The position numbers and the translations under genes were made by a program. Positions 3,560-55,362 of a DNA stretch of 64,000 nucleotides are shown piece after piece. Origin of the DNA: Flaccisagitta enflata (lineage: Eukaryota). Under the pieces are notes generated by a model, which had not been told where the DNA came from, made no database searches, and saw only the letters and a program-made list of their open reading frames with translations. Location of the stretch: positions 1,178,001-1,242,000 of the forward strand of contig OZ231126.1 of the NCBI GenBank assembly GCA_965153355.1, in the 5' to 3' direction. Each line of letters starts with the position of its first letter. The stretch's first letter is position 1.

Positions 3560-5700
3560 CATGCATACCTTAAAGACAATGATGACATACCTCAAAGTCC
3601 ACATTGGCATACCTCAAAGAATGATGACATACCTCAAAGTCCATGATGACATACCTAGAAGTCCATGATGGCATACCTTGAAGTCCATGATGGCATACCT
3701 CAATCTCCATGATGGTATACCTCAAAGTCCATGATGGCATACCTCAATCTCCATGATGGCATACCTCAAAGTCCATGATGGCATACCTCGAAGTCCATGA
3801 TGGCATACCTCAAAGACCATGATGGCACACCTCAAAGACCATGATGGCACACCTCAAAGACCATGATGGCACACCTCAAAGACCATGATGGCATACCTCA
3901 AAGACCATGATGGCATACCTCAAAGACCATGATGGCATACCTCAAAGACCATGATGGCATACCTCGAAGTACATGATGGCATACCTCGAAGTCCATGATG
4001 GCATACCTCGAAGTCCATGATGGCATACCTCGAAGTCCATGATGGCATACCTTGAAGTCCATGATGGCATACCTAGAAGTCCATGATGGCATACCTAGAA
4101 GTCCATGATGGCATACCTAGAAGTCCATGATAGCATACCTAGAAGTCCATGATAGCATACCTAGAAGTCCATGATGGCATACCTTGAAGTCCATGATGGC
4201 ATACCTTGAAGTCCATGATGGCATACCTTGAAGTCCATGATGGCATACCTTGAAGTCCATGATGGCATACCTTGAAGTCCATGATGGCATACCTTGAAGT
4301 CCATGATGGCATACCTTGAAGTCCATGATGGCATACCTTGAAGTCCATGATGGCATACCTTGAAGTCCATGATGGCATACCTTGAAGTCCATGATGGCAT
4401 ACCTTGAAGTCCATGATGGCATACCTTGAAGTCCATGATGGCATACCTTGAAGTCCATGATGGCATACCTTGAAGTCCATGATGGCATACCGTGAAGTCC
4501 ATGATGGCATACCTTGAAGTCCATTTTGGCATACCTGGATGTCCATGATGGCATACCTTGAAGTCCATGATGGCATACCTTGAAGTCCATGATGGCATAC
4601 CTTGAAGTCCATGATGGCATACCTTGAAGTCCATGATGGCATACCTTGAAGTCCATGATGGCATACCTTGAAGTCCATGATGGCATACCTTGAAGTCCAT
4701 GATGGCATACCTTGAAATCCATGATGGCATACCTTGAAATCCATGATGGCATACCTTGAAATCCATGATGGCATACCTTGAAATCCATGATGGCATACCT
4801 TGAAATCCATGATGGCATGCTTTGAAATCCATGATGGCGTACCTTGAAATCCCTGATGGCATACCTTGAGGACCATGAGGGCACACCTTGAAGTCCATGA
4901 TGGCATATAAGTCTCTACACGACAGAATTTACTACCACACAGACCGTGTCAAATAATCGGTTTTACGTGGTCAAAAAGTCAAGAACACGAGTCTACTTTC
5001 AATTTGAGGAATAAGTATCTTTTACTAGCATCGAGATAGACAATTATTGCGCTCAATTAGTTGCAGTCAGACAGTTGAATTTCACTCATGTTAGTCTAAC
5101 TCAAATACAGTTGGAGTCAAACTCGAATACATTTGGAGTCAAACTAGAAAGCAATCGGAGTCAAACTCAAATAGTGAGTCAAACTCAAATAGTGAGTCAA
5201 ACTCGAAAAGTTGGAATCAAACTCAGAGAGTTAAGAGTCAAACTCGATTATTAAGAGTCTAAAAATTCGACTAAGGTTTTGACTCTAAAAGGTAGTCCAA
5301 AAATTCGACTCTAATTTTTAGACTCTGAAAGTTAGAATCCAACTCGAAAAGTTTAAGAGTCTAAAAATTTGACTAATTTTTACTCTAAAAGTTAGAGTCG
5401 AATTTTTAGACTCTAAAAGTTAGAGTCTAAAAGTTAGAGTCTAATTTTTAGAATCCAACTTTTAGACTCTAAAAGTTAGAGTCTACAAATTTGACTAACT
5501 TTTAGACTCCAACTTTTCGAGTTTGACTCTAGCGCCGAGCGCCAGCTTAAAATGTCATTAATTTCGCAGAAGACGGCGTACTCCACCTGCGCGATCAAAG
5601 ATGGCATACCTCAAAGTCCATGACGGCGTACCTTGAAGTCCATGATGGTGTACCTTGAAGTCCATGATGGTGTACCTTGAAGTCCATGATGGCATACATC
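3560..5700. repeat. 22-bp minisatellite (ccatgatggcataccttgaagt)n, about 60 units at 3560-4907 and a few more at 5600-5700
   Basis: Directly visible head-to-tail array without spacers, interrupted by an unrelated repeat-rich insert at about 4908-5598. Confidence 0.95.
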
Positions 5701-40025: not shown

Positions 40026-41152
40026 ACAAGCGAGAAAATGTAGAGGCTCTCCGCGTTTGCGCAATTAAGGTGTCTTGAGCTCTTTTAAATCAATTATGAA
40101 TTCAAATCAATTATGAATTTTCTTTTGAATCTCTGCCTCAGTTGCAAAACCTCTCTTTTCATAGAATATGAGTTCATTGACTCGTTGGTAATTCAACTAC
40201 AGTTGGAAAGCTTAATTTTTTGCCTATACTATGGTTTGATCAATGTAAATAAAAGAATAGGGTTTATGTATGTATTTATAATACTGTGATACACAGAAAA
40301 TAACTAGGGCTTTACAATCATGTGGCATTCATGATAAATACCGCTGTTTCATTTTATCCGCCTTTGCTCGTCTTCTTTGCACTGTGCTTTCAGAGTAATT
40401 CTGAGTGAAAAAACATAAAACAATTAGTTTTTCTGCAGCTTTTTTTAGTATAGGGGTGTAATAACATATAACTAGCAAAAAACAAAATCATTCACAAAGC
40501 GCTTTTTTAATGCAGATTCTACTGAGTTGAATTGACTCATTTTCTGATTGAATATTGTCAATCCTTGCAAAATTCCTTTTCATTTGATAGGTCGCACATC
40601 TATATTTTTGTAAAGATTTAAAATTTTCATCTTTTGAGTTGCCATTACCATTACCATTTGATTTTTTGAGTTACCATTACTAAAGTAGCAGATTCAAAAC
40701 CCCATTGTCATATGAACTTTCACTCAGATTTTTTTGAAAGCACATTGTTTGGTGGGGGAAGGTTCAGGGCGTGTGTGTATATGGGTTTGCGACGGGCATT
40801 AGGTTGGTGTGCATATCAATGTATCCTATTTCTTATTGAAAAGCTTAGAACTTCTTTGACATTCAATCCATTTATCAATTTCACTAGTTCCGGCTCTTCA
40901 ACTGAAAATCCGCAGTATCAGTAGTCACGCGATCACGCGCGCGAGTAAAGACAGTTTTGAGCTGTCTAAAGTTATGTCCGTTCTCGGGTCGTAAAACTGC
41001 ACAAGATTCGCCGCGTCCTCCTCCTCCTCCCTCTCCTACGATCCTACCCTCCTCCTTCCCCCCCTCTTCATCTAACTTCTTAACGACCTTGGAGTTAAAA
41101 ATACTGCTGTCCAAAATTCGAGACTTTGGGGGAAAATTCTTCTTAAACATTT

Positions 41153-41766
41153 GGAGGTCCATAAATGAGGAGAAGAGAGGAGGAAAAGAGGAAGATGGGG
41201 ATGAGAGTACGTGAGGAACAAGCAATGATTAAGGCCATAAATGAGGAGAAGAGAGGATGAAAAGAGGAAGATGGGGACGAGAGTATGTGAGGAACAAGCA
41301 ATGATGGAAGTCCATAAATGAGGAGAAGAGAGGATGAAAAGAGGAAGATGGGGATGAAAGTACGTGAGGAACAAGCAATGATGGAAGTCCATAAATGAGG
41401 AGAAGAGAGGATGAAAAGAGGAAGATGGGGATGAAAGTACATGAGGAACAAGCAATGATGGAAGTCCATAAATGGGGAGAAGAGAGGAGGAAAAGAGGAA
41501 GTAGGGATGAGAGTACGTGAGGAACAAGCAATGATGGAAGTCCATAAATGAGGAGAAGAGAGGAGGAAAAGAGGAAGATGGGGACGAGAGTATGTTAGGA
41601 ACAAGCAATGATGGAGGCCATAAATGAGGAGAAGAGAGGAGGAAAAGAGGAAGATGGGGACGAGACTATGTGAGGAACAAGCAATGATGGAGGCCATAAA
41701 TGAGGAGAAGAGAGGAGGAAAAAGAGGAAGAAGAGGAAGAGGGTGTGAGAGGGACAAGCAATGATG
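41153..41766. repeat. 77-bp purine-rich minisatellite, about 8 units
   Basis: ccataaatgaggagaagagagg...gaggaacaagcaatgatggaagt repeated head to tail. Confidence 0.95.
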
Positions 41767-44673: not shown

Positions 44674-45538
44674 GTAAGTTGAGTCACTAAATATTAGTAA
44701 GTTGGGTCAATCAACTGTTGTTAATTGGGTCACTAAATCATTGTGGGTCGGTTGGTTGGTCGGTCCTCTTTTGGGCAAGGGGTTGATGCCCTATGCTTTT
44801 TTGGGCATCGTTTCCAAAGGGGCCGATGACCTATGCTTTCACACATATGGGGAATTTTCTCCTTCTTCTCCTTCTTCTCCTTCTTCTCCTCCATCGTAAC
44901 CCCCTCAAATCCCAGTCTCGAGGCCCAAATCCCAGTCTTGAGGCCCAAATCCCAGTCTCGAGGCCCAAACCCCAGCCAAATTCTAGCCTCACGGCCCAAA
45001 TCATAGCCTCAAGGCCCAGATCCCAGCCTTAAGGTCCAAATCCCAGCAAAGAAGCCCAGATTCGAGGCTGAGATTTTGGCCTTGAGGCTAGGATTTGGAC
45101 CTTGAGGCTGGGATTTGGGCCTTGAGACTGGGATTTGGGCCTCGAGACTGGGATTTGGGCCCTACGACTGGAATTTGAGGGGGGACAGAGGAGGAGAAGG
45201 AGGAGAAGAAGAAAATCTCCCATATGTGTGAAAGCATAGGTCATCGAACCCTTTAGGGTCACTGCCCTGCTTCCCCTTCAACTTTAGCGCAACCTACTTG
45301 GGCGGGGCATGGGTACCGCTGACCATCTAACGCTTTTGCGACTTTTTACTTTTTCAGCTTTTATGGGCTTTTTGAGTTCACCGCTCCTGCCCAAATACCT
45401 TAGTGACATTCACTTTCACTGCCCCTACCCACCCGCACGCGACTGGGGTCACCATGTATCCCGTCTTGTTTAAAGGAGGCTGTATTGTTGTGTTGCAGGC
45501 TGGATTGTTGTATTGCAGGTTATATTGTTGTATTGCAG

Positions 45539-45635
45539 GTTCCCCATCGGATCGTTTGCCAATGTGAAGCTTGCTTACGCCAGAGAAGATCGGATTATTT
45601 TCGCTTCATCACCAACAGACTCAACTGTTACAAAG
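45539..45635 (+). CDS. TRPC-like channel exon (TRP_2 domain, His/Cys3 zinc site)
   Basis: Acceptor ttgcag| and donor AAG|GTACGC; phase 0-1. Translation VPHRIVCQCEACLRQRRSDYFRFITNRLNCYK carries the TRPC signature PH-x3-C-x-C-x2-C...D....S..RLN.YK. Confidence 0.92.
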
Positions 45636-46209
45636 GTACGCACTTTCAACAATGGAATGTGTTCACGTGTTACAAAGGTACTCACTGTCAACTACTGAAT
45701 GTATTCACGTTGGGACTCAACTGGTACAAAAGTACGCACTGTTAACTATTGAATGCATTCACGTTGGGACTCAACTGGTACAATGGTACGCACTGTCTAC
45801 TATGGAAAGAATGCGTTCACGTGGGGACACATTTTCTATGCGTTTTTTCATACCATGTAGGAAAAAAGTATATCTACACCTGTTCAGAAGTATCAACTTT
45901 ATTATTGAGCTACTTCTAAACAACTACAGTTACTTACCCTATTTTAGTTGCATTTGAAAGAGATTTAACAATTCTTGAAAATTAGATCAATTTCAATTAC
46001 GTTTTTTCAGGTTTAGCTACTTTATTTCATTTCATTTCATTTCATTTCATTTCATTTCATTTCATTTCATTTCATTTCATTTCAATAACGTTTTTTCAGG
46101 TTTAGCTACTTCATTTCACTTTACTCGTTGTCGCTACAATCTTGTCATTTCATGTCATGTCATCTCATGTCACGTTCTTTTTACAGGTTTAGCAACTTCT
46201 GTCTACCTA

Positions 46210-48439
46210 CAGGGTCTTCAATTTCATTTGACACGAAAAGAACCTATGCTGTGCAAAAACAAATCAACTTTTCAATTCAATTTTTTTTTCTCCTAAAAGC
46301 ACTATGTATGACGTTTTTAGTCGCGTGCACGCGACTCTATACCCCGCTTTGTCCGTCCGTCGGTTGGTCGGTCGGTCGGTTGGTCGGTCGGTTGGTCGGT
46401 CGGTCCCCTTTTTACTTTTTTTATTTGTTTTATTCCTATCAAGTCATTTTAAGTCAATTAAGTGATTTTGAGTCCAATTAGATCATTTTAAGTCATTTTA
46501 AGTCATTTTAAGTCACTTTAAGTCAAATTAAGTCATTTGAGTCATTATTGAATTTTAGTCAATTTAAGTCAATCTAGGTCATTTTAAGTCATTTTAAGTA
46601 AATTCAAGTCAATTTAAGTCAGTTTAACTCAGTATAAGTCAATTAAAGGCAGTATAAGTCAATTTAAGTCATTTTATGTCATTTTTGAATTTTAGTTTGT
46701 TTAAGTCAATTTTGGTCATTTTAAGTCAATTTAACTCATTTTTGGTATATTCAAGTCATTTCAGGTAAATTCAAGTCATTCTAACTCATTTTAAGTCAAT
46801 TTAAGTCAGTATAAGTCAGTATAAGTCAATTTAAGTCAATTTAAGTCATTTCATATCATATCAGTCATTTTTTAAATTCGCGTAATATAGTTGTTATAGG
46901 TAATTATAAGTCATTATGCAATTTTGGTAATCATAGGTAATCATAGGTTATTATGCAATTATAGGTAATCATAGGTCATTATAGGTAATCATAGGTCATT
47001 ATAGGTTATTATAGGTCATTATGTAATTATAGGTAATTATAGGTCATTAAGGGTAATTATAGGTTATTATGCAATTGTAGGTCATTATTGGTAATTATAG
47101 GTCAGTATATAATCATAGGTAAATAAAGGTAATTATAGGAAATTATAGGTCATTATAGGTAATTATAGGTATTTATAGGTAATTATAGGTCATTATGTAA
47201 TTACAGGTGATCAAAGGTCATTAAAGGTAATTATAGGTCATTATGTAATTATAGGTAGTTATAAGTAATCAAAGGTCATTATAGGTAATTATAGGTCATT
47301 ACGTTATTATAGGTAATTATGGGTAATTATGAGTAATGATAAGTCATTATAGGTAATTATTGGTCCATATGTAATCATAGGTGATCATAGGTCTTTATAG
47401 GTACTTATAGGTCAGTATCTAATTATGGGTAATTATAGGTAATTATAGGTAATCATAGGTCATTATGGGTAATTATAGGTCATTATGTTATTACAGGTAA
47501 TAATTGGTAATCATACATCATTATAGGTAATTATTGGTCCATATGTAATAAAAGGTAATTATAGGTCTTTATAGGTACTTATAGGTCATTATTTAAGTAT
47601 GGGTAATTATAGGTAATTATAGGTTATTATAGGTAATTATAGGACATTATAGGCAATTATAGGTCAATAGGAAGTTATAGTTATTATCGTCAATACAGGA
47701 AATAACGTACTCATACAATTAGGCGATTACGTAATTAAGTAAGTCTCGCACGCGACTTATAGGTGTTGGCCTTGTTTGTATCAAATTTTCATAGGAGTGG
47801 GTCTTGAAATTCAGCAGAAATCCATGTTTGAAGTTATGCAGTAAATTCAACTAAAAAGGTGGTTTTCTTGCAAATTTTGACTTAAAAATGCAAAAAAAAA
47901 AAAATCACTCGGTTTCAAACTTCAAATGCTTGATTAGAATCAAGTGATAAATGCTAAGACCCCAATGTTAAAAATAGCCAGGTTTTATCACAGAACAGTG
48001 AAGTTTAGGCAAATACTATCAAAATTTTTACAAAAATCTTACAAAAACTTAATCAAAGATTGTTTTTTTTCCAATAAAAAGGAAAATGGTTGATCATGAT
48101 GAAATTTCAAAGAATGTTTTTACTCAGATACAAAAACTTTATGAAATTATCTGCCATTCTAGACCAATCTCATATCTGTAGCTCAATGCGTTTAAAAATA
48201 AGAGCAGTTTAAAGATGAAAGGTCAGAAATACAAAATCCAACAAAATCTCCCATCTCATTATGACATCTTACACTTTAAAATGGGTTATCTCCTAAAATA
48301 ATTGACCCAGTACCATGAAATTTGGACACAAAAAAAAACCATATGTAGTTCTTTTAGGAGAAAAAAAATCAAATTAAAAAATTAATTTGTTTTTGCACAG
48401 CATAGGTTCTTTTTGTGTCAATTGAAATTGAAGACCCTG
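46210..48439. mobile_element. Tc1/mariner-type non-autonomous element with TA duplication, intronic
   Basis: TA|CAGGGTCTTCAATTTCATTTGACAC..AAAGAACCTATGCTGTGCAAAAAC ... GTTTTTGCACAGCATAGGTTCTTT..GTGTCAATTGAAATTGAAGACCCTG|TA. Confidence 0.9.
46314..47777 (+). mobile_element. HINE-like element expanded by 10-bp satellites (aagtcatttt)n and (aggtaattat)n
   Basis: Ends ttttagtcgcgtgcacgcgactcta ... gtctcgcacgcgacttataggtgttggccttgttt. The same ends occur on shorter copies at 58689-59083 (minus) and 60855-61212. Confidence 0.8.
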
Positions 48440-48696
48440 TAGCTTGTTGATGCCACAATCTTATCATGTCATGTCATGTCATCTCATGTCATGTTCTTTA
48501 TTTTCAGGTTTAGGTACTTCAGTTTACTTGGCTCGTTGTCGCTACAATCCTGTGACATGTTATGTTGTCTCATGTCATGTTCTTTTTTTTCAGGTTTAGC
48601 TACTTCGGTTTACCTGGCTCGTTGTCGCCACAATCCTGTTATGTCATGTCATTTCGTCGTATTTCATGTTGTCTCATGTCATTTTCTTTTTTTCAG

Positions 48697-48806
48697 GTTT
48701 AGCTACTTCGGTTTACCTGGCTCGTTGTCGCCAAAATCCTGTCATGTGCGCCTTCAGACTTCGCTGTGATCTGCTAGAAAATGCCAAGAGAGAGAAAGAA
48801 AACGCG
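48697..48806 (+). CDS. TRPC-like channel exon (helical linker)
   Basis: Acceptor ttttttcag| and donor GCG|GTGAGT; phase 1-0. Translation (G)LATSVYLARCRQNPVMCAFRLRCDLLENAKREKENA matches TRPC LASP..L....DP.L.AF.L..EL..LA..E.E. Confidence 0.92.
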
Positions 48807-48812
48807 GTGAGT

Positions 48813-48860
<48 letters not shown>

Positions 48861-49294
48861 AAGAGGAGGAGAAATAGAGAAAGGAATGAAATGAGACTGA
48901 AAGAAACACGAGGGAAAGGCGTTTCAAAATTGCTAATCTTCAGGTGGAGGTTATTCATGAGTCGGTGCATATTAATCATAAGGCCTTATATCTATCATGA
49001 GGTCTTATATTTTGCGCGACAGGTTTTTGAATTGAGAAATCTTTCAAGGGGTAGACCAAGAAGGGAGACAGAGCTGAGGTGCACAAGGTTGACTTTTACT
49101 CGTTGATCGCGTCCACATTCTAATGAAAATGGCATATCAATGACGTGGAAGCAGTTTGATTTGCTATATTGATCAGGCTTGAAATCCCATGGTGTCGCGT
49201 CCATAATTTGACGGGGATGGCTATTGGCAAATCAATTATGCGGAGACGGATTGTTCTCCTTCCAAGATTGAGTTCACATTCTCAGGAAGATGGT

Positions 49295-49700
49295 AAATGG
49301 ATTATGTGGATGTGGTTGGTTTTCCTGTTTTGAGAGCGTTTGTATTTTCATGGGTATGGCTAATGATTTGGGAGTGAGGTTTGTTCTACTGTACTATTCG
49401 CGTTCATGTTCTCTTGAAGATCGCTGATCAATGATTTGGAAGTGGTTTGTTCTCCTGTATTGTTCGTGTTCATGTTCTCATGAAGATGGCTAATCAATAA
49501 TTTGGAAGTGGTTTGTTTTCCAGTACTGATTGTGCTCACGTTCTAATGCAGATCGCTAATAAATGATTTGTAAGTGGTTTGTTTTCCAGTACTGATTGCG
49601 TTCATGTTCTCATGAAGATCGCTAATCAATGATTTGGAAGTAGTTTGTTTTCCAGTACTGATTGCGTTTGTAATCTCCTAAGGATGAAGTGGTTTAATCA
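49295..49700. repeat. 66-bp minisatellite, about 6 units
   Basis: atgatttggaagtggtttgttttccagtactgattgcgttcatgttctc... recurs at 49431, 49497, 49563 and 49629. Confidence 0.85.
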
Positions 49701-50179
49701 TTTGAAAGATACTTCCTCCAAAGCAAGGGGGCCAGGAAGTAACTAAAAATGTTGATAACCTTTAGATCACGGCTATTGGGGATGTAGCGAGAGAAGCGAT
49801 TAGCGAGGAAGAACGGACCCTGTGATATACCGCTCAAATTGATACGACAGCAGCAGGCTTAGAAGTTTGAACTGCGCCTTACTAATAGCTCATTCCATTT
49901 TACGACTTCCACGTTTTACAACCTCAGCGCTTTGGTCTCCAAAGTGTCATCTAATGTAAGGTCGGGCGTCGAGATTCCCGCGTTGCATACACCGCACTGT
50001 ATGCCAATAAGTGGCAGATTCCAATTACCTTGTTTTGTGTTGTTTCTTGCATGCAAATAAATAGAAAATTCCGATGGCAATGGGAATTTCAAGTCAGTTG
50101 TGCTCTTAATTGTTTTATGGTTTACTCCGTGTACTAGAGAGTTTATTCATTGCTTATATGACATTGAAAACGTTCACAC

Positions 50180-50278
<99 letters not shown>

Positions 50279-50970
50279 TATCCTCCCCTCATTTCTCACC
50301 TCGACACACGTTATGCATTTTAGAGAACAGCTTTACTCTCATAGACTATATATCACCTCCACGTATTGCCACCATTTTACTGCCTACTAAAGGAAACTTC
50401 AAAACGATTTTTAGTCGCGGACACGGGACTCTACACTGGGGGCCGTGATAGAACATGACTTTGGCATTAACGCTCGGACATATGTATAATGTGTTTCTGG
50501 TGGCTTACCAAGACTCACTCTCAAATCAAAGGGCCCTTAGACATAAAGAACTACTTCCGTGCCACACCCTCATTCTCCATTGTAGATATAGAAGATTTTT
50601 CTTGCTCTTCCTCCTTATATATTCCTCCTTCTTATACATTACTATGCAAATATGGGGTGTGGCACGGAAGTAGATTTTGATATCTGATGCTGTTTTCCTT
50701 TTATTCAGATGATGTATATGTTAATGCACACTGTTCAATCATATGTCGAAGTAGCAAAGCCAAGATCATGTTCTATCGCGGTCCCACTCTACACCTTGCC
50801 GTGTCGGTCGGTCGGTCCGTCGCATCGGTATGTCCGAAATATTTCTAAGATTGCGAACGGTGTTTGCATTACTGCCCCTGCCCAGCCGTCCGCGACTGGA
50901 TTGCCGTGTATCCGGCCTTGTTTTTTTTTTTTTTAGTTTCCTCGCTAAGATCTTATATTCATGCCTGTGA

Positions 50971-53900
50971 TTTTTAGTCGCGTGCACGCGACTCTACACC
51001 TTGCCGTGTCGGTCGGTAGGTCGGTCTGTCGGTCCGTCGGTCGGTCCGTCCGTCACATTTTTAAAATTATGACTTTTTAAGATATTTTAAGGTAATTTAA
51101 TGTACTCTAGGGTATTTCAGGGGACTTTAGGGTACTTTAGGGTACTTTAGGGTACTCAAGTTATTCTAGGTATTTAAGGTACTTTAGGGTACTTTAAGAT
51201 ATTTTTGGGTACTTTTGGGTATTTTTGAGTAATTTTAGGTATTTTTTGGAATTTTGGGGTATTTTGGGTATTTTTGGGTATTTTTGGGTATTTTTGGGTA
51301 TTTTTGGGTATTTTTGGTTTTTTTTAGGTATTTTGGGTATTTTGTCAACTTTTTTTTGATCAGACGTTACAGATTTTTTTTTTTTGGACAGACGTTATAA
51401 ATCTTTAGTATGTAGTTATATAGTATGAAGTTGTAGTCTGTAACATTTTTTAACATTTTTAGCATTCTTAACATTTTTAACATTCCTAACAATTTTCAAC
51501 AATTTTTAACATTTTTCAACATTTTTAACATTCATAACATATTTAACATTCTTAACATTTTTTAACATTCTTAACATCTTTTAACAATTTTTAACATTTT
51601 TGACATTTTTAACATTTTTAACATTTTTAACATTTTTAACATTTTTAACATTTTTAACATTTTTACATGGCGCCATAACTCCGTACTTCGATCCTTTATT
51701 GATGTATTTGCGTCACGGCTAAAATCTGATGTTGTTTTTTTCTCGGATTTGGATGGATTCCAAGCGCCGCACGGTGGGACCATCCCTCCTGATATTTTAG
51801 TGACGTCATTCAGGCCTGACTTGTTTTTCATTGACCGATCTAGACGCCGCATTGCATTATTGGAACTTACTTGCCCATGGGATTCAAATGTAAATCGCAG
51901 CCACGAGTTCAAAGAAAACAAGTATGCCCCTCTTGTTGCCGACCTTTCTCACGATTATAAGGTTTTTCAATTCTCTGTTGAAGTAACAGTGCGTGGACAG
52001 ATCTCCAAAGAGAATAAATCGAGGCTCAAATGCTTTGCTTACAAATTCTGCAGTGATTCTAAGAATGTTTTTAAGCTTCTGGTTAAAAACGGTTCTAAGG
52101 CTGCGCTTCTTGGCTCTTATAGTTTATTTTTGGCAAGAAATGAGCCATCCTGGACAGCTCCACGCCTTTTGATTATCCGTTGAACCAATGATTCCTATTG
52201 CCGTTATTACTTTTTGCTTTTATTTATTACTTTTCGTTTTTATCTGCGCAACGATGATCTGTGTAGGACTAGTCATTGTCGTCTGGCAATTTTTACAATC
52301 CAACAATCTGTTGAGCTGCGTAGATACTGTTGTTATATTTTTCATGAAAATATAATTTTACTACTTTAACATTTTTAACATTTTTAACATTTTCAACACT
52401 TTTTTAAAACACACAAACTTTGCTTTTTAAGGTTTTTTAAGGTATTATAAGGTACTCTAGGGTATTTCTGGGTACTTTAGGGTACTTCAGGGTACTTTAG
52501 GGTACTTAAGTTATTTTAGGTACTTAAGGTATTTTAGGGTACTTTCCGATGTTTTTGGGAACTTTTTGGTATTTTTGAGTATGTATGGGTATTTTTAGGT
52601 GTTTTTGGGTATTTTTGGGTATTTTTGGGTATCACTGGGTAATTTTGGGAATTTTGGGTATTTTGGGTATTTTATCAACTTTTTATTGGACACTCGTTAT
52701 TGGTTCAGAATTTAACTTTTTTTGGGACAGACGTTATGTAGTATGAAGTTGTAGTATTGTAGTATTATACTTGAGTAAGTATGTATGTAAGTATGTAAGT
52801 AGGTAAGTATGTAAGTATGTGAGTATGTAGGTAAGTATGTAAGTATGTAAGTATGTATATAAGTATGTAAGTATGGGTATGTAAGTATGTAAGTAGGTAT
52901 AAGTATGTAAGTATGTAAGTATGTATGTAGGCACGTATATAGTATGTAAGTATGTAAGTATGTAAGTATGTAAGTATGTAAGTAAGTGTGTAAGTATGTA
53001 AGTATGTGAGTATGTAGGTAAGTATGTAGGTATGTGAGTATGTAGGTAAGTATGTAGGTATGTAAGTATGTATGTAAGTATGTAAGTATGTAAGTAAGTA
53101 TGTAAGTATGTAAGAAAGGATGTAAGTATGTAAGTGAGTATGTAAGTATATAAGTATGTATGTAGGTAAGTATGTAAGTATGTAGGTAAGTATGTAAGTA
53201 TGTAGGTAAGTATGTAAGTATGTAGGTAAGGATGTAAGTAAGTATGTAGGTATGTAAGTATGTAAGTATGTAAGTATGTAAGTAAGTATATAAGTAAGTA
53301 TGTAAGTAAGTAAGCATGTAAGTATGTAGGTAAGTATGTAAGTAAGTATGTAAGTATGTAAGTATGTAAGTATGTAAGTATGTAAGTATGTAGGTAAGTA
53401 TGTAAGTATGTATGTATGTAAGTAGGTAAGTATGTGAGTATGTAGGTAAGTATGTAAGTATGTGAGTATATAAGTATGTAGGTATGTAAGTATGTAAGTA
53501 TGTAAGTATGTAAGTAAGTATGTAAGTATGTAGGTAAGTATGTAAGTGTGTAGGTAAGTATGTAAGTGTGTAGGTAAGTATGTAATGTATGTAAGGGTAT
53601 GTATAGGTAAGGTGTAAGTATGTGAGTATGTATGTAAGTATGTAAGTGTATATAGTATGTAAGTAAGTATGTGTGTTATGTAGGTATGTAAGTATGTATG
53701 TATGTAAGTATGTATGTGGTATGTATGTAAGTATGGTATGTAGAACGTGCATGTGGGTATGTAGGTAAGTGTAAGTATGAAATAAGTATGTAAGTAGGTA
53801 GTAAGTATGTGAGTATAGTGAGTATGTAAATATAAGTATGTAAGTATGTAGGTATGTGTAAGTGTTATGTAGTAAGTATGTAAGTAAGTATGTAAGTATG

Positions 53901-54372
53901 TAAATGTGTAAGTAAGTAAGTAAGTATGTATGTATGTAAGTATGTATGTAAGTAAGTATGTATGTAAGTAAGTATGTATGTATGTATGTATGTATGTACG
54001 TATGTATGTAAGTAAGTATGTATGTAAGTATGTAAGTATGTAAGTAAGTAAGTATGTAAGTATGTAAGTATGTATGTATGTAAGTATGTATGTAAGTATG
54101 TAGTATGTATGTCGGTATGTATGTAAGTATGTAGTATGTATGTAAGTATGTAAGTAAATATGTAAGTATGTATGTAAGTATGTAATTGGGTAAGTATGTA
54201 ATTAGGTAAGTATGTAATAATGTAAGTATGTAAGTATGTATGTAGTATGTAAGTATGTAGTAAGTATGAAGTATGTTAAGTATGTAGTATGAAGTTATGT
54301 AGTTGTGTGTAGTATGAAGTTGTGTAGTTTTGTGTAACTTAGCACGCGACTGTTGGCCTGTTGGGCTTGTTT
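50971..54372 (+). mobile_element. 3.4-kb HINE-like element filled with simple repeats, including about 1.6 kb of (aagtatgt)n at 52740-54335
   Basis: 5' tttttagtcgcgtgcacgcgactcta plus (GTCG)n; 3' gcacgcgactgttggcctgttgggcttgttt. Confidence 0.75.
51665..52365 (+). mobile_element. 5'-truncated non-LTR retrotransposon with a restriction-like endonuclease (RLE; R2/NeSL/HERO-type C-terminus)
   Basis: Frame 51665-52183 reads TWRHNSVL...RPDLFFID...IALLELTCPWD...KENKY..L, giving the RHN and PD-(D/E)xK-type RLE motifs. Flanked on both sides by (tttttaaca)n. Confidence 0.85.
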
Positions 54373-54673
54373 TCTGGTGAAATGTCATTCTCTTTCTGTC
54401 GCTTCTTTATCTGTCTACCAGTCTCTCACTATGTCTTTCTGTCTGACCTTCTGTCCATCTATCTGTCTCCGTCTGCCTCTGTCTGTCTGTCCGTCTGTCT
54501 GTCGGTCCGTCTGTCTGTTTGTCTGTCTGCCTATCTATCTATATGTCTGTCTGTCCGTCTATCTGTCTGTCTGTCTGTCTGTCTGTATGTCTGTCTGTCT
54601 GTCTGTCTGTTTGTTTGTCTGTCTGTCTGTCTGTCTCTTGTCTCTTGTCTCTCTCTGTCTCTGTTTGTCTGTC

Positions 54674-54723
<50 letters not shown>

Positions 54724-54786
54724 CGTATGTCTGTCTGTCTGCCTCTCTGCCTGTCTGTCTGTCTCTGTCTGTCTGTGTCTGTGTCT

Positions 54787-54866
<80 letters not shown>

Positions 54867-54947
54867 CAGATCGAGTATGAGCGGCTCGCTCAGTCATGTA
54901 CTCAGTTCACGAGTGACGTTCTCGACCTTTGTCCCTCTCTCATTCAG

Positions 54948-55109
54948 ATCGAGTATGAGCGCCTTGCTCAATCATGTACTCAGTTCACGAGCGACGTTCT
55001 CGACCTTTGTCGAGACTCAAACGATGTCAAAGCGATTTTGTTCAGTTCTCAAGATGGAGATGAATTTCTTGGAACCATTTCCTACGCAATAAGATTCGAA
55101 GAAAAAGCG
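54948..55109 (+). CDS. TRPC-like channel exon (linker helices), with an alternative in-frame acceptor at 54870
   Basis: Acceptor cattcag| and donor GCG|GTAGGA; phase 0-0. Translation IEYERLAQSCTQFTSDVLDLCRDSNDVKAILFSSQDGDEFLGTISYAIRFEEKA matches TRPC EY..L...C..F..DLLD..R.S.E...IL...AI....K. Confidence 0.93.
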
Positions 55110-55362
55110 GTAGGAATAATTGAATTCTGAGGAACAGATTGATAATTGAATGAATGAAAATATGAATGAAGGAATGAAATAATGAATGGATGAATGAATG
55201 AATGAATGAATGAATGAATGAATGAATGAATGCATGCATGCATGCATGCATGCATGCATGCATGAATGCATGAATGAATGAATGAATGAATGAATGAATT
55301 ATTGAAAGAACACGCAAAATGAATGAATGAAACAATGAATGAACTAGTCCATTGATTGATTG

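Follow-up and report, generated by a model that had tools for sequence, protein, structure and literature searches.

The DNA analysed here, called the window throughout, is a stretch of 64,000 nt, and within it three exons of a TRPC-like channel gene were identified on the plus strand, here called N-2, N-1 and N (Table 1). Judged by its fragment-level scores, exon N is part of such a gene: 34 PDB sequences match it at E<=1 and 33 of these are TRPC1, 3, 4, 5 or 6, the best match being to residues 258-293 of TRPC3 (E 3.8e-4), and the solved chains of TRPC3, 4, 5 and 6 align with it free of gaps across the end of the repeat unit described below (..LDLCRDS..). The two exons ahead of it match successive stretches of the Pfam TRP_2 domain (PF08344), with an E of 2.2e-4 for exon N-2 and of 1.9e-5 for exon N-1, and their scores of 21.8 and 25.2 bits lie under the 27-bit gathering cut-off because each exon is a fragment of the domain. 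The order found, again with fragment-level scores, is TRP_2 and, after it, the linker-helix sequence that TRPC proteins have in common. The phases also fit, as exon N-2 ends in a split codon which exon N-1 completes and exon N-1 then ends in phase 0, and the donor placed at 48806 by the preliminary description of this DNA is right. The form of exon N that aligns with known TRPC proteins is the single-copy form starting at 54948.

Ankyrin repeats, a six-helix pore and a TRP box were looked for among 141 + 106 plus-strand frames (30018-63955) and none was found; the TRPC exons that carry them may be beyond the window, or so short that they escape scoring. The next downstream exon was not found with short TRPC motifs or with Pfam, a domain search with the largest reading frames of the window returned nothing relevant, and Rfam gave 0 matches on the window.

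At the acceptor of exon N a 78-nt unit occurs twice, head to tail, and each unit comprises the intron's final 13 nt, AG included, and then 65 nt from the start of the exon. Tandem Repeats Finder reports the array as 54857-55011, with a period of 78, 2.0 copies, 94% matches and 0 indels, and a second repeat search finds the same pair of copies (its family D7) with the register shifted slightly. The sequence ctctctcattcag followed directly by ATC is present at 54857-54872 and again at 54935-54950, with two candidate exon starts 78 nt apart, and a 20-nt core of the unit has exactly 2 matches in the 64-kb window where 0.01 would be expected. From the upstream candidate start the frame is open over 54870-55109, giving 80 residues and no stop, and the longer form would keep the reading frame, since 78 nt make 26 codons free of stops. 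In the resulting read-through peptide IEYERLAQSCTQFTSDVLDLC occurs twice, joined by a PSLIQ linker that is the translation of the copied intron end.

The two units differ at 5 of 78 bases, of which four lie within the 63 coding bases (21 shared codons) and the fifth is the final base of the unit, at the breakpoint. The coding differences, written as unit 1/unit 2, are G/C at 54884/54962, C/T at 54887/54965, G/A at 54893/54971 and T/C at 54914/54992; every one of the four is at a third position and synonymous, and two are C/T changes at CpG. What the preliminary description had read from the duplicated sequence, namely its acceptors, its peptides and these four codon differences, all holds on rechecking.

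Table 1. Coordinates in the window of the exons, splice signals and boundary repeats of the TRPC-like gene (a slash marks the exon-intron boundary).
Feature	Position	Strand	Remarks
20-nt repeat, ~3 copies each ending ..ttgcag/g	45477..45539	+	before exon N-2
Exon N-2	45539..45635	+	TRP_2 positions 1-27
42- and 54-nt repeats, 'exon N-2 end + donor'	45626..45807	+	
Two extra copies, 'intron end + start of exon N-1'	48470..48696	+	
Exon N-1	48697..48806	+	TRP_2 positions 22-61, donor gcg/gtgagt
(TGTC)n then (CT)n microsatellite	54432..54862	+	intron 3' end, pyrimidine tract of the upstream acceptor
Unit 1, upstream copy	54857..54934	+	variants CGG, CTC, CAG, AGT
AG, upstream acceptor	54868..54869	+	exon start 54870 would add 26 aa in frame
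Unit 2, continuous with the unique exon remainder	54935..55012	+	variants CGC, CTT, CAA, AGC
AG, downstream acceptor	54946..54947	+	exon start 54948
Exon N, ortholog-like form	54948..55109	+	162 nt, 54 aa, phase 0-0
Exon N donor	55110	+	gcg/gtagga

The 78-nt duplication is real DNA and not an artefact of assembly. Eight of the 15 public sequencing runs listed contain part of the stretch; they come from three studies, and each is a marine metagenome or a run of organism A. Four runs were compared over 54840-55146, namely X1 and X3 (marine metagenomes of study P1), X2 (organism A, study P2) and X15 (RNA). Contigs cross the unit-to-unit junction at 54934/54935 in all three of the DNA runs, and so in two studies: record 1 of X1 covers 54904-55011 and spans it, as does record 7 of X3 with 54904-54961, and records 4 and 5 of X2 cross it too. 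In X1 and X3 the tail of the unit runs on into the unique part of the exon and the intron as well as into the junction, with record 2 of X1 corresponding to 54982-55114 and record 14 of X3 to 54982-55126 (1 and 2 differences respectively, synonymous), so that contigs extending so far belong to this locus, either in the species of the window or in one very close to it. The poly-A RNA of organism A (X15) had 0 reads on 54840-55146 among the ~12.2 million sampled, which are ~6% of the run, and is uninformative on expression or on acceptor use.

The preliminary description had offered a haplotype-merging assembly error as one origin of the two copies, that is to say two haplotypes of one exon start merged in tandem. 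Long microsatellites flank the region, the species is apparently very polymorphic (the runs differ from the window at 1-2 positions per ~100 nt of exon), and the available part of PMC3087553 describes one published boundary repeat that was mis-assembled in a draft genome, all of which would suit such an error, but with the head-to-tail junction present in contigs of X1, X2 and X3 from two studies it is hardly credible. It is also quite improbable that the run contigs, above all those of the high-depth X2, derive from some other locus or from a dispersed satellite family of the unit. In favour of another source is that X2 covers the unit alone (54876-55011, at a word depth of 59-390) and nothing of the unique 55016-55146, and that at 54942, an A in the window, every contig of the three runs reads C. 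However the unit tail in X1 and X3 enters both the junction and the unique exon and intron, the hole in the coverage of X2 proves nothing, the unit has no further copy in the 64-kb window and searches of the protein collections gave no multi-unit reading frame.

The 20-nt core of the unit had 0 matches in JGI metagenome contigs, a protein-guided scan of the same contigs gave 363 pattern matches of which 0 were confirmed, a word-indexed search for longer proteins gave 5 candidates and none that scored, and the ESM Atlas returned only low-recognition, unrelated clusters. Two features of the run contigs may be recorded alongside. The window reads A in ..ctctcAttcag of both units (54864 and 54942) and the contigs of X1-X3 that cover 54942 all read C, which could reflect homogenisation within the array or a difference between lineages. 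Further, X1 agrees with the window as far as 55114, beyond which it departs from it (10 loose letters), whereas X3 stays in agreement up to 55126, and therefore the intron behind the donor differs between wild samples.

The number of units at the locus is not fixed. Record 3 of X2 (150 nt) comprises a unit tail, a whole unit, 20 nt of the expected junction length and the start of the next unit, and since this makes two junctions in one record there must be at least three units there. The junction depth in X2 (104.1+58.8) divided by the unit-tail depth (191.6+58.8) is 0.65, which fits ~3 units; this estimate uses the internal ratio and the two-junction contig only, the absolute depths being set aside. 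A count of hundreds of copies, suggested by the X2 depth of 59-390, was dropped because the baseline depth is missing and the unique part of the exon is uncovered. At the other end of the range is the relative P0002, an 83-residue frame on a 987-nt metagenome contig and found in two protein collections, which is single copy. It reads MLAPFSYSHFQ and then IEYERLAQAC..., the former being intron-like text ahead of the exon sequence, and 53 of its 58 aligned residues are identical to the exon in the window; from this single copy the ancestral state would therefore be one unit. With one unit in P0002, two in the window and at least three in X2, which may be another species than that of the window, the description of the locus as a copy-number-variable minisatellite is supported.

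Unit variants occur in the runs as well. In the unit contigs of X3, G at 54962 has a depth of 9.27 out of 16.6 and C at 54965 one of 5.67 out of 16.6, three combinations of the unit-1 and unit-2 states are present at the first two of the four sites, and record 9 has a G-type unit after a junction as well. The unit-1 states at the remaining two sites, G at 54893 and T at 54914, were seen in none of the X1-X3 contigs and look private to unit 1 of the window. The internal unit in record 3 of X2 has three changes among the positions listed, one of them synonymous and two that replace a residue, 54951 G>A (E to K) and 54969 C>G (Q to E), and with two non-synonymous changes in this one unit it follows that upstream units are not uniformly held as coding sequence. 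The end-points of the X3 contigs, at which the first unit is of the G type and the last of the C type as in the window, are only suggestive, the Logan contigs behind that order being simplified graphs; such an order would make part of the difference between units positional and old, and not freshly allelic. The unequal crossover put forward in the preliminary description thus survives in a wider form, as a VNTR with at least three units (X2) versus two and with variants common at two of the four sites (X3), and what falls away is the merging of two alleles as an assembly error. Two other records contain repeated TRPC-like pieces. P0006 has the whole 59-residue exon equivalent of the TRPC-like piece twice, identical and contiguous, and P0004 has decayed partial copies of the TRPC-like exon piece with intron-like text between them; in each case a genomic repeat, a transcript or an assembly loop could be responsible.

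Between -13 and +65 the two acceptors do not differ, and across -42 to -3 the upstream acceptor is 97.5% pyrimidine versus 72.5% for the downstream one, in agreement with the longer tract at the upstream site that had been pointed out in the preliminary description. No A occurs between 54728 and 54863 (136 nt) and no AG between 54430 and 54868 (438 nt), the nearest A for the upstream acceptor being 54727 at a distance of 142 nt, and so the upstream acceptor is limited to a distant branch point. The 3' end of this intron is an unusually long pyrimidine/GT microsatellite, for which a distant or non-canonical branch point is needed. The downstream acceptor has a candidate branch sequence of the yUnAy type inside unit 1 (A 54909, 38 nt upstream), further A residues at 54916 and 54925 also lie inside unit 1, and no usable AG comes before the downstream acceptor. 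Under the branch-point-to-first-AG rule it is the chosen branch point that sets the acceptor. A branch inside unit 1 would then give the normal mRNA, and a distant branch the form longer by 78 nt.

The following course of events can be proposed. A tandem duplication would have copied the final 13 nt of the intron together with 65 nt from the start of the exon, in a genome extremely full of tandem repeats, and the number of units would then have changed by unequal exchange or replication slippage. Normal mRNA would be made from the last acceptor, the sole one continuous with the remainder of the exon, and unit 1 would serve this acceptor by supplying a branch candidate at a canonical distance, being itself a 'mirage' of the exon start that stays within the intron. 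Splicing at published boundary minisatellites uses the authentic site and leaves the copies silent, and on that analogy the downstream acceptor is taken, with some reserve, as the main one. A copy-number-variable splice-site minisatellite with normal mRNA coming from 54948 is accordingly the reading that we favour with moderate confidence, acceptor use being judged from the DNA, and the duplication would probably leave the protein unchanged. Counting against a silent unit 1 are the identity of the acceptors from -13 to +65 and a pyrimidine tract that is far stronger at the upstream one. Furthermore, as the unit is in frame and stop-free, use of the upstream site would not trigger nonsense-mediated decay.

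The acceptor of exon N is one of several boundaries so affected, as another three splice sites in these exons, not noticed in the preliminary description, have tandem copies of their boundary. Ahead of exon N-2 there are three acceptor-like sites 20 nt apart, and behind it donor GTs occur at 45636 (authentic), 45678 and 45732, the extra donors being in frame and open to 45742. The array at exon N-1 (48470-48745) has three copies, each made of the intron end and the first ~47 nt of the exon, and the exon starts at 48508, 48594 and 48697 (authentic) are spaced by 86 and 103 nt. Starting at 48508 leads to a stop and starting at 48594 to a frameshift. The upstream copies have 7 changed codons relative to the authentic one, 4 of them synonymous, and as these copies are untranslatable a synonymous excess can therefore arise without translation.

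Repeats are abundant here in general, tandem repeats making up 25.7% of the window and 40% of 45000-55200. Of the 6 authentic splice sites that the three exons have between them, Tandem Repeats Finder places 3 inside a repeat of period >=15, and a fourth, the acceptor of exon N-1, was added by alignment. An enrichment of repeats at splice sites was considered and rejected since the background in the gene region is already 40%, and with that background the repeats at splice sites are taken as chance in a repeat-rich genome, with no preference for such sites. Elsewhere in the window there are a 22-nt unit repeated 61 times at 3563-4907, a 77-nt unit repeated 8 times at 41152-41766, a 10/58-nt array at 46894-47664 and a 1.5-kb array of (AGTATGTA)n at 52774-54301.

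How four out of four coding differences between the units came to be synonymous is the point on which the accounts of the locus differ. The probability of this is 0.002-0.006 if both units drift freely and ~0.026 if unit 2 alone is constrained and a difference is given a 0.4 chance of being synonymous, values which carry a look-elsewhere effect because the case was picked as striking. A neutral tandem duplication in which the four synonymous differences are coincidence is helped by the small numbers, by the choice of a case for its striking look and by two of the four being C/T changes in CpG, a hot spot of mutation, but set against a probability of 0.002-0.006 it is very unlikely. If instead the array is a splice-site minisatellite with normal mRNA from the downstream acceptor, changes would arise in, or come from, the functional exon copy or its alleles, past a coding filter. 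That copy would accept synonymous changes only and would exchange sequence with its neighbours, and a synonymous excess would result; since the functional copy would filter the changes beforehand, differences that are all synonymous would need no translation of unit 1. That G 54893 and T 54914, apparently private to unit 1, are both synonymous counts against unit 1 being silent.

A contrasting view, raised in the preliminary description, is that both acceptors are used and that the upstream one gives an isoform with 26 aa inserted in frame (the helix IEYERLAQSCTQFTSDVLDLC a second time, with PSLIQ), purifying selection keeping unit 1 coding. This would account directly for four third-position, synonymous differences (with the low probability under neutrality given above), including the two that appear private to the upstream unit of the window, and it has in its support a frame open across both units, the shared splice context and upstream pyrimidine tract already described, and a 438-nt zone lacking AG, through which scanning from a distant branch point would arrive first at the AG of 54868. 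Nevertheless, of the 3 coding changes listed for the internal X2 unit, 2 are non-synonymous, and a copy number that varies, together with a relative that has one copy, speaks for extra units being dispensable. The structures of TRPC3, 4, 5 and 6 have no insertion at this place, and just one helix of 21 residues, added within a linker domain that is itself helical, would presumably be unable to return the chain to its start. Splicing is regular in the published mirages, as far as the available text of PMC3087553 and PMC3902484 goes, and the synonymous excess is found also in the neighbouring and untranslatable array of exon N-1. An AlphaFold2 model of the 80-residue read-through peptide, made with no alignment, has helices at 2-20 and 26-49 and a break at 21-25, and its mean pLDDT of 54.9 is too low for it to be used as evidence. 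On balance the use of both acceptors seems unlikely, if worth keeping in view. The same doubtful standing attaches to the further idea of a coding innovation caught in the act, in which the upstream acceptor would be used in some tissues and a second linker helix would be under purifying selection. Were that so, all four synonymous differences would be explained, the two private to the upstream unit included, and an unstable copy number would tune the length of a TRPC linker.

Overall, what appeared to be an exon-start duplication is real DNA and part of a more general habit, that of minisatellites which copy splice sites. For annotators and splice predictors this means two identical acceptors at exon N and similar traps at three other boundaries, and choosing among such acceptors requires RNA evidence. 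Use of the upstream site, if it occurs, would make this a natural example of a splice-site repeat that lengthens a protein in frame, a test bed for the spliceosome's choice between 3' splice sites of identical sequence, and the acceptor-side counterpart of the donor model provided by the human F7 gene. As it stands the locus is a further case of a phenomenon described since 2002, the original paper on 'mirages' reportedly being that of Canestro et al. 2002, on Adh3.

Mirages are minisatellite-like duplications of intron-exon boundaries in amphioxus, and those covered in the available parts of PMC3087553 and PMC3902484 are in Adh3, the globins BflGb6 and BflGb9, troponin C and PGBD5, with unit lengths of 10-160 bp. 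At BflGb6 the array is made of the '3' end of the intron + 5' part of exon 2', there are 6 and 3 units in two haplotypes, the units undergo concerted evolution and splicing is regular by RT-PCR (PMC3087553, in the sections available). The likeness to exon N is close. Here too the 78-nt unit holds intron and exon of one boundary and repeats the splice signal, with an AG in both units, and as in BflGb6 it joins an intron 3' end to an exon 5' part and lies in copies upstream of the authentic exon. A difference in unit number, 6 and 3 at BflGb6, has its counterpart in two versus at least three in X2, the published range of unit lengths brackets 78 nt, and several boundaries on both 5' and 3' sides are hit, as in the TRPC-like gene (amphioxus data as in the same parts of PMC3087553 and PMC3902484). 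Different from amphioxus is that regular splicing was seen there (PMC3087553), the comparison on our side being of DNA structure alone, and that the name mirage has been used for cephalochordates alone. A mirage unit that is in frame, stop-free and different only by synonymous changes is not reported in the available parts of PMC3087553 and PMC3902484. By all its sequence-level features the locus is of the wider kind, a VNTR over a splice site, and in the narrow amphioxus sense it is a candidate member.

Intron 7 of human F7 contains a 37-bp VNTR, the first unit of which lies across the exon 7-intron 7 boundary, and its pseudo-sites are functional and normally silent, according to the accessible portion of PMC1557585. 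Both it and the array at exon N are polymorphic minisatellites in which a splice site is present in identical, successive copies, and in F7 the site is chosen by its position and not by its sequence. However the F7 repeat is on the donor side, and there 5'-to-3' scanning selects the site lying furthest upstream, in contrast to the acceptor side here (F7 data from the same portion of PMC1557585). For the 78-nt repeat, and in this unlike F7, acceptor choice would depend on the branch point used, given the general rule set out earlier. Rogers' model, as it is cited in the available part of PMC3087553, has introns gained or exons extended by internal tandem duplications that carry AG/GT. With it the present locus shares a tandem duplication over a splice signal that makes a second usable signal, by which exon can turn into intron or intron into exon, and it differs in offering the raw material alone, with no new intron or exon shown. 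In the TRPC channels themselves the part of the protein concerned is the linker-helix region that comes after the TRP_2 domain, and it is this region that exon N would encode.
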